A DNA stretch of 35,380 nt from a virus. Lineage: Duplodnaviria > Caudoviricetes. The stretch is from the IMG/VR virus record IMGVR_UViG_3300030330_001746, positions 1 through 35,380 of that record; one strand, 5' to 3'. Under the pieces are notes generated by a model, which was not told the DNA's origin, did no database searches, and worked only from the letters and a program-made list of their open reading frames with translations. Below, one piece after another: positions 8,753 to 32,087 of the stretch. Each line of letters opens with the position of its first letter. Position 1 is the stretch's first letter. The position numbers and the translations under genes were made by a program.

Positions 8753-10039
8753 ATGAGTACCCAGGTGACACAGGCGTTCGTGAATCAGTTTTCGTCGAAC
8801 GTCGAAATGCTCAGCCAACAGATGGGAAGTCTGTTGCGCGGCGCCGTTGACAGCGAGTCTGTCACCGGAGAAAAGGCCTTCTTCGACCAGATCGGTAAAT
8901 AACTTTGCCTAGTTAGTGTGAAAGCACTTTCTGAAAACCCATCAAATTCGGTGAAGGCTTTAAAATGCTAATACCGAGCGAAGCCCGATTGGGAACGTGT
9001 AGAGACTAGACGGTGGGGGCCGTAACATTCAGTTGACGGTCGAGGTATAGTCCAGACCACAAACAGCGGAAGCTGGCGGCGAAAGCCGTAGCTGGTACGG
9101 AAGCAGCAGCAATAGCGCGCACTTCACGGCACGGAGATACGCCACTTGTCGAGACGCCTCACTCTCGGCGACAGGTTAGCTTAACAACGTATGAGTGGGC
9201 CGACCTCAATGGGGTCGTAACTGGGTGAATTGCTGGAAAGCTAAGTCCGCAAGGATATGCCAATCAGCATCCAAGCTCGAAAGAGAAGGTTCAGAGACTA
9301 TCCGCAAGGAGTACACCGCGAGCGCGGTGGAAGCGCCCAGACCCGATAAGGGTAAGATATAGTCCGATCCTGCGGGAAACCGTAGGCAGCGAAAGCGGGC
9401 CAAGGTTAGCGACCTTGGTTGAACAAATACATTGATGATGCGGACAAGGTCCGCATGTTGATAGATCCAACATCCTCGTATGCACGCGCCGCCGCTGCGG
9501 CAATCGGGCGAGCGATGGATGATGAGATCATCGATGCCCTTGGCGGCACAGCCAAGACTGGCAAAGACGGGACGACTTCAACAGCGTTCCCGGCAAGCCA
9601 AAAAATAGCGGTTGCGTCCTCTGGACTTACAATCGCAAAACTGGTCAACGCAAAAAAGATCCTTGATCAGAACAACGTCGATGCATCGATTAAAAAATAC
9701 ATCGTTGTATCACCCGAGCAGATTGAGGATTTGCTCAACAATACAACCGTGACTTCGAGCGACTTCAACACTGTTAAAGCTTTAGCTCAAGGTGACATTT
9801 CAAGTTTTGTTGGTTTCGAATTTATCGTGTCTAACCGTCTAAGCGTTGACGGGTCGAGTGATCGACTCTGCTACGCCTGGGCTCAAGACGGCGTTAAGCT
9901 CGCAATTGGCAAAGACGTAATGGCGCGTGTCGAAGAGCGCGCCGACAAAAGTTTTTCAACGCAAGTCTACTATTGCAGTACTTTCGGGGCGACCCGTATG
10001 CAAGAAGACAAAGTCGTTGAAATTGCTTGTAGTGAGTAA
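8753..10039 (+). CDS. Major capsid protein, spliced: join(8753-8896, 9100-9206, 9430-10039), 286 aa
   Basis: AGGAG RBS. Exons of 144+107+610=861 nt join into a continuous frame: MSTQVTQAFVNQFSSNVEMLSQQMGS...FFDQIG|EAAAIARTSRHGDTP...YEWADL|IDDADKVRMLIDPTSSY...KVVEIACSE. Confidence 0.9.
8897..9099 (+). ncRNA. Group I intron 1 (203 nt, IC3/Azoarcus-like)
   Basis: 5' exon ends in U; intron ends in G. P AAAUUCGGUGAA, Q AAUACCGAGCGAAGC, R GUGUAGAGACUAGACGG, S GGUAUAGUCC; P3 CCCAUC/GGUGGG; P10 CUUU/GAAG. Confidence 0.9.
9207..9429 (+). ncRNA. Group I intron 2 (223 nt, IA-like with P7.1/P7.2; terminal nucleotide A)
   Basis: P1 CGACCU/GGGUCG with U.G pair; P GAAUUGCUGGAA, Q AAUCAGCAUCCAAGC, R GUUCAGAGACUA, S AAGAUAUAGUCC; P3 CUGGGUG/CGCCCAG; P10 CAAUG/CAUUG. 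Confidence 0.88.
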
Positions 10040-10538: not shown

Positions 10539-10568
10539 AGGGGGGCTTCTGGCCCCCCTTTTCTTTTT
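10539..10568 (+). terminator. Intrinsic terminator after the capsid genes
   Basis: AGGGGGGC-TTCTG-GCCCCCCT hairpin followed by TTTCTTTTT. Confidence 0.8.
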
Positions 10569-29222: not shown

Positions 29223-29306
29223 CTTAGCTAAGCGCTGGAAATGACCTCGCCAGGCGGCATCCGCACGGTGCCGCCGAGTGAGATCGCTAAGCCAGAGGAG
29301 AGCAAC

Positions 29307-30434
29307 ATGGCACCGAAAACACCAAAGGGCATTCGTTACAGCAAGCGCGACAACGGCTACATCGTCAACCTCCGCAAGTACGGCGGCGGTGAGCCGGTGC
29401 GCAAAACGCTCGACGAAGCGAAGGCTTTGCTTGAGCATGCCGCTGCCGAGCATCGTGACGGCGGCTTCATACCACAACATACGTCGCCGGCGTTCTCAGT
29501 GATCGCCGACAAGTTCATTGAGCACGAGGAGACACGCGTGCGCCGCGGCGACCTCGGCGAGGGCGAGCTGGCAAACAAGCGCACCAACGTGCAGCACCTG
29601 ATCGCGCTGCCGTTTGGCAACTCGACGCTCGGCGAGACCAAGGTCGCGGATCTGCGCACGGGCCCGATCCAGCTCCAGCTCGTGCCGGCGTTGTTCGAAG
29701 GCCGCGCGCACAAGACGGCGTCCAACATCTGGACGACGTTCGGTCAGGTTCTCAAGCACGCTGTGCTGCTTGAGGCACTCAAGAAAAACCCGATCGTTGA
29801 TCGTCAGATCACGCTGCCGGCAAAGCCGATTACAGCCGACGCGTTAGCTGCGCGCCTGTCGAAAAACATCATCAACGTGATCGTTGAACACGCCGGCCGC
29901 CACTCCCTCGTCATTGAGTTCGCAGCGTGGACTGGGCTGCGCGCCGGCGAACAGATCGCGCTGACCTGGGACGACATCGACTTCGACCGCGGCCTCGTGA
30001 CTGTGCGGCGCGCGCGCAAGAAGTGCGGTGGCCTTGGCGCTGCTAAGACCAAGGCAGGGCAGCGCTCGGTGCCATTAGATCCTGAACTGCTTGCCAAGCT
30101 GCGCGCATGGAAGCTTGCGCAGCCGATCGAGCAACGCGTCAACAATCTCGTTTTCCCGACGACGACCGGCGCGATGGACAATGTAGACAACTGGCGCAAG
30201 CGCGGGTTGCACAAGGCGTGCGATCGCGCCGGCGTCGAGCGCATTACCTGGCACTCTCTGCGTCACTTCTTTGCGTCAATCTTGCTGTACGATCTGCGCG
30301 AGGCCGATGCGACGGTAACGACGCTGATGGGTCACAAGTCGATCGACTTTACCCGCCAGCAATACGGGCATTGGATGGAAGACGCAGACCGCGACACCGG
30401 CATTGCCGAGCGTCTGGCGAGGGCCCGCGGATGA
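29307..30434 (+). CDS. int: Tyrosine integrase
   Basis: GAGGAG RBS before ATG 29307; TGLRAGE, KTKAG, HSLRH, MGH and QQYGH catalytic motifs. Confidence 0.93.
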   Translation: MAPKTPKGIRYSKRDNGYIVNLRKYGGGEPVRKTLDEAKALLEHAAAEHRDGGFIPQHTSPAFSVIADKFIEHEETRVRRGDLGEGELANKRTNVQHLIALPFGNSTLGETKVADLRTGPIQLQLVPALFEGRAHKTASNIWTTFGQVLKHAVLLEALKKNPIVDRQITLPAKPITADALAARLSKNIINVIVEHAGRHSLVIEFAAWTGLRAGEQIALTWDDIDFDRGLVTVRRARKKCGGLGAAKTKAGQRSVPLDPELLAKLRAWKLAQPIEQRVNNLVFPTTTGAMDNVDNWRKRGLHKACDRAGVERITWHSLRHFFASILLYDLREADATVTTLMGHKSIDFTRQQYGHWMEDADRDTGIAERLARARG

Positions 30435-30589
30435 CAGGGGTGCGCGCAAAGGGGGGTATCAAATGCACCCCCCGCGATCCCGCATGGCGTTGGCGCCGTG
30501 CGCTCGGTCACAAGGTTGTGAAGAGCCGAAAGCTTTACACTCGCAAGACGAAGCACAAACCCCGCCACAAGCGGGGTTCTTTTTTATGA
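30431..30589 (+). CDS. Small basic protein with an ArfA-like motif (52 aa)
   Basis: ATGA overlap with int; RDP...GHKVVKSRKLYTRKTKHK. Confidence 0.5.
   Translation: MTGVRAKGGIKCTPRDPAWRWRRALGHKVVKSRKLYTRKTKHKPRHKRGSFL
30558..30585 (+). terminator. Intrinsic terminator at the convergence of two operons
   Basis: AACCCCGC-CACAA-GCGGGGTT followed by CTTTTTT. Confidence 0.75.
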
Positions 30590-30787
30590 GATTAACGCTT
30601 CGACGCCTTGGTGAACGCCTTCGACGATGTCGTTCACCAGGCGATCGATAGCTGAGTCGTCGAGCTTCTGTTGCTTTGAGATCCAGACACCGGACGCGCC
30701 AGTCATGTCGTCATTGCTTTCAACATGAATGAAGAAGCTGCCGAAGTCGGTTTTAATTTTTACTGTACTTGTGTTTTTCCTACTCAC
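30584..30787 (-). CDS. Hypothetical protein (67 aa)
   Basis: Last ORF of the leftward operon, overlapping the upstream gene; KIKTDFGSFFIHV weakly recalls TSCPD domains. Confidence 0.6.
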   Translation of the reverse strand: MSRKNTSTVKIKTDFGSFFIHVESNDDMTGASGVWISKQQKLDDSAIDRLVNDIVEGVHQGVEALIS

Positions 30788-31100
30788 TAGCGGCGTCTTT
30801 CGCGATTAGTAGATTGCGCAGTCTGTTGAGGTGCCAGCGTGCCTTCTCGATATCGGTGCGTGGATCTGGGTGCTTCTCGCGATACCGCGAGACATACTTA
30901 ATTATGTTGCCAACCATGTACGCCTCGTCTGCCGGCAGATCGCGCACAACGTCGATGATGTAGTCAAACGTTTCGACAGAGCCTTTTTTGTAGTGCGCCG
31001 GGTTAATTTCATCTACGTCAGGGCAGTCGCAGTTCTCGCACGTAATCGTCGCGACACCCTCACGCACAATGCCCTTGTCGTCACACTTCTCGCAGCTCAT
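30780..31100 (-). CDS. DUF3310 family protein
   Basis: INPAHY...ETFDYI...GNIIKYVSRY..K...DIEKARWHL; N-terminal CxxC pairs. Confidence 0.85.
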   Translation of the reverse strand: MSCEKCDDKGIVREGVATITCENCDCPDVDEINPAHYKKGSVETFDYIIDVVRDLPADEAYMVGNIIKYVSRYREKHPDPRTDIEKARWHLNRLRNLLIAKDAASE

Positions 31101-31270
31101 AGACGCTCTTCGATCGATGCACGCGATACATAGTACCGAGCGCCTAATGGAATGTGTCGAAGTTGTTTATCATGGATAAGCTTTAAAACTTTTTTATAAG
31201 CCTGGTGGTCCCGAGAGCCGAATAAGACCTCAGCGGCATCGCGAACGCTAAGTAATGCTGCTTCAGTCAT
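31097..31270 (-). CDS. xis: Excisionase-like HTH protein
   Basis: LLSVRDAAEVLFG...LIHDKQLRHIPLGARYYVSRASIE; ATG 31270 overlaps the upstream stop. Confidence 0.7.
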   Translation of the reverse strand: MTEAALLSVRDAAEVLFGSRDHQAYKKVLKLIHDKQLRHIPLGARYYVSRASIEERL

Positions 31271-31380
31271 TGCACCCACGTTGACCACATTTGGTCATTG
31301 GTCGCTGCTAGAAAAACAAACGCCATATAGATCACGACGAAGAAACTGAGCAACCCCAGCGTCTCACATAAAAATCGCAT
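31267..31380 (-). CDS. 37-aa single-TM peptide
   Basis: MRFLCETLGLLSFFVVIYMAFVFLAATNDQMWSTWVQ; GAGGG RBS; stop coupled to the xis start. Confidence 0.5.
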   Translation of the reverse strand: MRFLCETLGLLSFFVVIYMAFVFLAATNDQMWSTWVQ

Positions 31381-31427
31381 AAAAAAAGCCCTCTCGAAAT
31401 TTGGTACGAGAGGGGAATATATAGGAA

Positions 31428-31470
31428 TTACCAAACGTAAGTCAAATTGACTTATTATTACCCTTGGTAA
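31428..31470. promoter_or_regulatory. Pair of TTAC-N5-GTAA operators upstream of the xis operon
   Basis: TTACCAAACGTAA (31428) and TTACCCTTGGTAA (31458); TTGACT on the minus strand between them. Confidence 0.65.
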
Positions 31471-32087
31471 GTTCCAACAATTGTATGCACGGCAACGACA
31501 TTTTTGCGGGGATGTTTGATTTGACGGTCAGGATTGTGTTGTCGCAGAACAATGTGCGTTTCTGTTAGTTCTACGAAGCGCTTAATGATTGCGTGGGTGC
31601 TGCCATTAGCGGCAAGCTGAACGACGACATAGTCATTCTCTCTATATGGGCGATGCGGGTGGACGTACACAACCTCGCGCGCCATGTATCTAGGTTCCAT
31701 CGAATTTCCGGTAACGAAAACAGCATAAGCGTCTTGCACGCTTTCCAGCCAGCTTGGTGTGTCGATTGTGTCGATGGGTTGGTCAACGTCTGTAATGTCG
31801 AAACCAACCTCTCCTCCTTGCACTGCTCCATATAATGGCATCTTAACCCCTCTAGTTCCTGTTCGCTGGTTAAGCCCCAGATCAACGCCCATGACTTTAT
31901 CGATCGGCACTTGGAGCGCATTAGCTATAGCTTGAGCTATCTTAACAGACGGTTGCGCTTCTTGACTTCCGTCAGCTCTTATTCTCGTGTATCGCCTCAA
32001 AGTGTGAGGCTGCATTCCAATACGCCGAGCTAACTCGGAAATGCTCATATCATGTTCGGCGCAAAGCTTTTTTATATTGTTGCGCAT
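31458..32087 (-). CDS. cI: CI-like repressor (HTH plus S24 peptidase)
   Basis: MSISELARRIGM HTH; VTGNSMEP catalytic Ser; IIKR catalytic Lys. Confidence 0.9.
   Translation of the reverse strand: MRNNIKKLCAEHDMSISELARRIGMQPHTLRRYTRIRADGSQEAQPSVKIAQAIANALQVPIDKVMGVDLGLNQRTGTRGVKMPLYGAVQGGEVGFDITDVDQPIDTIDTPSWLESVQDAYAVFVTGNSMEPRYMAREVVYVHPHRPYRENDYVVVQLAANGSTHAIIKRFVELTETHIVLRQHNPDRQIKHPRKNVVAVHTIVGTYQG

Follow-up and report, generated by a model that had tools for sequence, protein, structure and literature searches.

The subject of this report is the last base of a short group I intron in the major capsid gene of a tailed phage, which is known from a contig of 35,380 nt with 52% G+C (Caudoviricetes; IMG/VR record IMGVR_UViG_3300030330_001746). 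This whole contig is the window of our analysis. Its sole capsid gene lies on the plus strand and is split by two group I introns, the only ones that Rfam finds, neither of which contains an open reading frame (ORF). Exon 1 (8753..8896, 48 codons; PHROG 3437, major head protein) ends at a joint seen in RNA and is followed by intron 1 (8897..9099, 203 nt; Rfam RF00028, 55 bits), which ends in G and serves as an internal control. Exon 2 (9100..9206, 107 nt) finishes with CGACCU, the exon strand of helix P1, U9206 being the 5' splice site of intron 2 (9207..9429, 223 nt), which is of IA2 architecture, lacks P2 and has a fold z-score of -3.94. Exon 3 (9430..10039; Pfam PF19821) begins with the exon strand of P10 (9430-9434). 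The spliced gene encodes 286 residues, the motif WADLIDD included, and is colinear with intron-less relatives; retention of intron 1 or intron 2 halts translation after 49 or 90 residues, respectively.

The terminal guanosine, omega-G, is nearly universal in group I introns and is taught as the ligand that drives the second splicing step and sets its register. Intron 2 ends instead in A9429, as the first-pass annotation had proposed from the letters alone, and this is now confirmed by the agreement of the reading frame, the RNA joint, the DNA contigs, P10 and the pair A9367-U9428. Regarding the frame, 9206 joined to 9430 fits, while the use of the nearest G (G9421) shifts it, just as had been predicted; the in-frame G9417 and G9411 would add 4 or 6 residues. 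Regarding DNA, contigs of the runs X7 (9196-9565) and X8 (9013-9490), which are not flagged as the source, read A9429 with 0 other letters against the window; the X10 contig ends at 9357 and none of the X13 pieces listed covers 9429.

We also compared four metatranscriptome runs, namely X9 and X11 (one sample), X15 and X16, as contigs that carry neither strand nor level. In contigs of X9 and X11, base 9206 is followed directly by 9430, so that exactly 9207-9429 is skipped, and contigs of X9 and X16 join 8896 to 9100, which removes intron 1. The X9 contig (1001 nt) skips both introns and has 0 other letters against the window. Thus, in the contigs of one sample, intron 2 is precisely removed and its exons are joined, as is expected of a group I intron. 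Ligation at G9411 or at G9417, the latter having been named beforehand as a possible alternative, is excluded by this joint. Neither the intron-1 nor the intron-2 joint occurs in any of the four DNA runs, and the joined junction is found in no fetched locus, the nearest intron-less genes among 62 aligned loci being at most 76% alike in DNA. Intron-2 sequence was not assembled in the four RNA runs, a weak observation because contigs carry no levels.

The position of the 9206/9430 joint is ambiguous by up to two bases, which leaves three registers with the ends A, C and A, never G; in the 14 A-ending introns described below no register ends in G either. The wobble pair U9206-G9212, present in 14/14 of them, fixes the 5' cut, and G-ending introns at the same codon share the 9206 cut register. 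Moreover, A9367 pairs with U9428 as the penultimate base, which places the omega position at 9429. This single base (9429..9429) occupies the omega-G column of the DNA-polymerase intron of Pseudomonas phage LUZ24, and the tails of the two introns are equally spaced; since LUZ24 has G in this column with the same tail length, the A arose by a G-to-A substitution. At the other sites of the capsid family one of the protein-optimal registers was U...G in 15 of 21 strings, whereas it was one base off in 4 (all at site 259) and misplaced by the script in 2 (intron 1 of the window and one intron of locus L348). Intron 2 lacks the terminal G which, in the canonical second step, occupies the P7 site.

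The guide of intron 2 (9207..9217) consists of the first five intron bases, which form the intron strand of P10 (9207-9211), of G9212 as wobble partner of U9206, and of the remainder of P1 (9213-9217); P1 itself (9201-9206 with 9212-9217) is 100% paired, with two compensated pairs, in the A-ending introns. The core (9221..9340) holds P3 (9221-9227/9334-9340), P4, P5, P6, P6a, the 5' strand of P7 (9294-9300), P7.1 (9301-9310) and P7.2 (9314-9329), the last two lying between P7 and P3 as in T4 td and LUZ24. It is followed by the 3' strand of P7 (9360-9365) with the P9.0 bases G9366 and A9367 (9360..9367 together), and by the hairpins P9, P9.1 and P9.2 (9369..9420), where 6/7 pairs of P9.2 have changed on both sides. 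The RF00028 core fold (P3-P9, P4-P6) scores 63.2 bits against a gathering value of 50. On architecture and homology we class intron 2 as IA2-type, because P7.1, P7.2, P9, P9.1 and P9.2 are arranged as in T4 td and LUZ24; IA2 is what we take to be the subgroup name for this type, and the T4 td record labels its intron group 1A. At the first position of P6 (9270) the window has U, whereas 13/14 relatives have G. The loops of P7.2 (9320-9323) and P9.2 (9406-9412) each hold GC and might form a short loop-loop pair; at those places td and the intron of L006, read by eye, have GU and AC.

The guanosine-binding pocket had been described as canonical, and indeed G9296-C9364, the bulged A9295 and G9294-C9365 are invariant in 14/14. 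The same type of pocket also occurs in G-ending introns. Among the core columns special to the A-ending set we found only lineage markers, which some G-ending introns have as well, and no pocket change specific to a terminal A. The two-pair P9.0 of the first-pass annotation stood in part. Its pair A9367-U9428 is kept in 14/14. It also covaries, since a Watson-Crick pair stands here in 26 of the 34 tail types of G-ending relatives, against 17.5 expected, a count reached in 0/10,000 shuffles. Its second pair, U9368-A9427, forms in 4/14 only and shows no significant covariation (23 of 34 tail types against 19.7 expected; 1060/10,000 shuffles). It had missed a further pair, G9366-C9424, between the base after P7 and the base after the GAA motif, which shows strong covariation and is kept in 82 of 89 related cores. 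The test used 44 G-ending rows with one tail G; 25 ambiguous rows and 3 without G were dropped, and by eye the latter turned out to be two mis-called tails and one longer tail that ends in G.

The homologues, whose last base had been suggested for tabulation, come from searches that left this base unspecified. An intron at this codon was present in 67 locus rows, in 21 distinct strings, two of which were fragments of others; among the 19 kept, the last base is A in 14 (the window included) and G in 5 (L037, L078, L326, L348 and the partial L338, L037 being a near copy of L078). The 14 A-ending introns are 82-99% alike (median 92%) and 223-252 nt long. The final A and the U before it are present in 14/14, and the three bases upstream of these vary. 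Over a structure of 72 pairs, 98.5% of the 1008 cells are paired and 17/72 pairs are compensated; 0/500 shuffles gave as high a compensation count, and slid controls were 29-43% paired. Because pairing is this complete and 17 pairs have changed on both sides, the ribozyme is under maintenance. Together with the joined RNA, this lineage of 14 members with compensatory changes supports the suggestion that we are dealing with a natural omega-A ribozyme.

A scan that used the intron's 5' end alone (28 loci) revealed no further G-ending intron at the site, and a looser pattern listed 120 loci, 3 of them with the intron. In the metagenome search 15/90 loci had the core, the others being chance matches, and in the genome collection (60 loci) we found no capsid gene and no such intron core. 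In a tree built from 84 rows of 3' halves, after 4 long rows were dropped, the 13 A-ending rows group with LUZ24 and another three rows that end in G (support 100/97); L338 has the tail register of the A-ending set, yet it is not their sister on the tree. The carriers are scattered over the capsid tree, with 10 changes, at least 2 of them forced (110 columns, therefore weak), and an exon 3 identity of 64-93%. This scatter suggests that the intron has passed from phage to phage, even though none of its members codes for an endonuclease; intron 2, with its 223 nt and no ORF on the coding strand, has none of the endonuclease coding of a mobile intron. The hairpin P2 is absent in 11/14 A-ending introns, in which P1 leads to P3 via three bases (9218-9220 in the window), in contrast to L254, L408 and L427. 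L434 and L254 differ in P2 and match in the same stretch of exon-3 protein, which is a sign of recombination. In other genes, the introns of L496, L503 and L514 start with almost the same ten bases as intron 2; L496 and L503 end in G, and L514 was counted as G-ending, but it has a long insert and its end was not located.

What distinguishes the A-ending introns is found at the 5' end. P10 had been reported as an exact complement, CAAUG with CAUUG, and this was borne out: 9207-9211 match the exon bases 9430-9434, and the match is kept in 14/14. In all A-ending introns five bases separate the 5' splice site from the wobble G, and a P10 of five Watson-Crick pairs reaches the first intron base. 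By contrast, the stretch before the wobble G is 8-21 bases long in 14 G-ending capsid introns, and their P10 has 0-6 pairs and reaches the first base in 0/14. This comparison covers capsid introns whose ends are anchored by the protein; the P10 statistics from an automatic finder of 5' splice sites were set aside, because it put known sites (L009, L078) in the wrong place. The exon codons that form P10, CTC ATT, are present in all carriers and in 2/46 intron-less alleles. From these patterns it is likely that P10 positions the 3' splice site in the A-ending introns.

We therefore regard it as quite probable that intron 2 belongs to a natural A-ending IA2-type lineage, in which the first step is ordinary and the 3' site is then set more by base pairs than by a docked G. 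Free guanosine would bind at the unchanged G9296-C9364 site and cut after U9206; we infer a guanosine-started step because the pocket is unchanged and this chemistry is established. The freed intron start (9207-9211) would then pair over five bases with exon 9430-9434, while G9366-C9424 and A9367-U9428 would hold the tail, and A9429 would reach the active site despite its poor fit in the pocket. According to the literature, omega-G normally displaces the added G as second-step ligand (PMC2588497), and P10 and P9.0 define the 3' splice site (PMC6155759). In intron 2, the formation of P10 might itself withdraw the added guanosine from the pocket, a job usually done by competition from omega-G, because this guanosine is joined directly to the last P10 pair. 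Thus, we infer an altered second step. Most simply the A is a tolerated change; possibly it is favoured because it would curb 3' hydrolysis and circle formation, and exon ligation is probably slower with A than with G. A stronger version is possible, though we hold it doubtful: a protein-free ribozyme, spread among marine phages, which ligates efficiently with no docking of omega-G, the five-base P10 alone aligning the 3' site. If so, the P10-based second step would be a distinct design in which architecture makes the terminal G dispensable.

Several points weigh against this picture. P10 and P7 are invariant in the 14 introns and give no covariation proof, so the link between P10 and the terminal A is a correlation within one lineage, and the exon match may have been co-inherited with the intron. 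A strong P10 is not exclusive to the A-ending set either, as the G-ending L348 has one of 6 bp, and in another capsid family a similar guide of six bases opens introns that end in G, with a P10 of 3-4 pairs. As for RNA, the intron-2 joint is seen in 2/4 runs, which are from one sample (X9 and X11), contigs of X15 and X16 fall short of the second joint, and the three DNA runs of that sample contain next to none of the stretch; hence an intron-less twin may be present in it. Both trees give two changes for the A, which may nonetheless have a single origin.

Another idea is a dead intron or an erroneous A, with joined contigs that stem from a strain without the intron. In its favour, DNA may be present in RNA libraries, and intron-less capsid genes are in the majority among relatives. 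Nevertheless, the skipping of the two introns is exact and leaves 0 other letters, the joint appears in 0/4 DNA runs, and the nearest intron-less gene is 76% alike, which makes this idea hardly credible. A sequencing error, one of the first proposals for this base, is refuted, because two DNA runs and 13 relatives read the A, and a disabling mutation, another of them, is very unlikely in the only capsid gene of the window, with exact joined RNA and a compensated lineage. Highly improbable, too, is a register that is off by one or two bases (an end at C9430 or A9431, with a start after a non-wobble pair), or the editing of A9429 to inosine, which is read as G. The RNA joint is compatible with three registers, and A9429 stands in a UAC context, invariant in 14/14, which we take to resemble a motif of bacterial deaminases. 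However, UAC is followed by A and does not stand in a stretch that is a hairpin loop; U9206-G9212 is invariant, the G-ending introns at the same codon fix the register, A9367-U9428 sets omega at 9429, LUZ24 has its G in the same column, and a shifted end would still not be G.

Selection may also have favoured the omega-A for its effect on capsid synthesis, as a kinetic throttle or timer. The gene is essential, retention of intron 2 stops translation early (after residue 90), the A is invariant in 14/14, and the coral intron ND5-717 is more than 70% unspliced (PMC6545197). Yet most relatives have no intron at the site and others have G-ending introns at the same codon, the X9 contig crosses the two joints in the same way, and intron-2 sequence is missing from the contigs of the four RNA runs, although this is weak for lack of levels. 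As contigs carry no rates, the slow throttle that had been proposed is unsupported and we consider it improbable. A need for help is less far-fetched, although still unlikely in our opinion: the A-ending intron would be unable to finish alone and would depend on a host or phage protein, such as an RNA chaperone, a helicase or the translating ribosome. Such a need would alter the mechanism and leave the observation as it is. In the literature, omega-G is the normal second-step ligand (PMC2588497) and an in vivo protein need is common among group I introns (PMC3984707); P2 has been lost too, in 11/14 including the window's type, and protein help is assumed for obligatory organellar introns. On the other side, the intron has no ORF, none of 48 ORFs has a maturase-like Pfam or PHROG match, the core and the peripheral helices are complete and covarying, and the carriers span diverged phages. 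We therefore favour the natural A-ending lineage whose 3' site is set mainly by base pairs.

Regarding the phage itself, the window contains genes for terminase, portal, a scaffold-like protein, capsid, tail, integrase and repressor. Its capsid protein is 62-66% identical to capsids of HTVC010P-type pelagiphages, and the sequencing runs that contain the stretch carry marine labels. The presence of the integrase and repressor genes (29241-32087) suggests that the phage is temperate; its capsid is HTVC010P-like, but its G+C content is 52%. Around the capsid gene no promoter or terminator signal rose above chance, except a hairpin at 10539-10559. Intron 1 is of a different type from intron 2, presumably resembling the Azoarcus IC3 intron.

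The capsid gene family is a hot spot for introns. ORF-less group I introns of 194-266 nt occur at about 8 codons (near 43, 48, 60, 68, 84, 92, 199 and 259), up to three or more per gene, with no endonuclease inside (L006, L017, L019, L025, L027, L106, L206, L234, L348, L385). The L385 contig has introns 1 and 2 of the window unchanged, plus a third one, absent from the window, at codon 199, which is intron gain or loss among near-identical phages. In run X8, one DNA contig carries a diverged allele of intron 1 (window 8980-9040), and in another relative exon 3 contains 418 other letters (window 9828-9998), possibly a further intron.

The terminal A does not make intron 2 a new kind of element, as omega-A has published precedent in the coral ND5-717; natural omega-A introns of the literature had gone unmentioned in the first-pass annotation. 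For an A-ending intron in a phage, we found no report in the literature searched, which left most subscription papers out of reach and is no proof; the passages covered of PMC11878797, PMC4990558, PMC10964413, PMC10136302, PMC3679873 and PMC3984707 do not mention one. The value of this case lies in its size and its controls. The natural exceptions described in the papers cited here are very large organellar introns, which are difficult to assay, whereas intron 2 is a compact ORF-less intron, and 13 further A-ending variants, the G-ending introns at the same codon, the G-ending intron 1 and the spliced G-ending LUZ24 intron are natural controls, which make the question of what replaces omega-G testable with few transcripts. 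If 3' hydrolysis and circles are avoided, such an intron could serve RNA engineering. Furthermore, intron finders that demand a final G will misannotate genes of this kind.

Comparing with known systems, the closest is the LUZ24 DNA-polymerase intron, 71% identical over 62% of intron 2, with the same P7 type, the same three bases after P7, the same tail spacing and a supported clade that unites it with the A-ending set; however, it ends in G, carries an endonuclease gene and lies in a polymerase gene, whereas intron 2 ends in A, is ORF-less and lies in a capsid gene. The T4 td intron has the same order of P7.1, P7.2, P3, P8, P9, P9.1 and P9.2 and the GAA-C tail, but it ends in G, has one more linker base and encodes I-TevI, and its identity to intron 2 is about 55% in the 3' half. 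The intron Cbu.L1917 of Coxiella burnetii 23S rRNA reportedly ends in A and self-splices; it is said to belong to another subgroup, with an rRNA host and a single species, unlike a phage capsid lineage. The LUZ24 intron is 669 nt long and its splicing has been shown in vivo (PMC10914365). Finally, the hexacoral ND5-717 has no omega-G, yet its exons are ligated exactly in vivo; it is more than 70% unspliced and forms no circles (PMC6545197). Its omega-A was named, and suggested to prevent 3' hydrolysis and circularisation, in another paper (PMC8146996). Like intron 2, it has a natural omega-A in an essential protein gene and exact exon ligation. Nevertheless, ND5-717 is a giant intron of organelles which is obligatory, passes on by vertical inheritance, contains genes in its P8 and stays mostly unspliced at steady state, whereas intron 2 has 223 nt, is optional, has spread among phages and shares its codon with neighbours that end in G.
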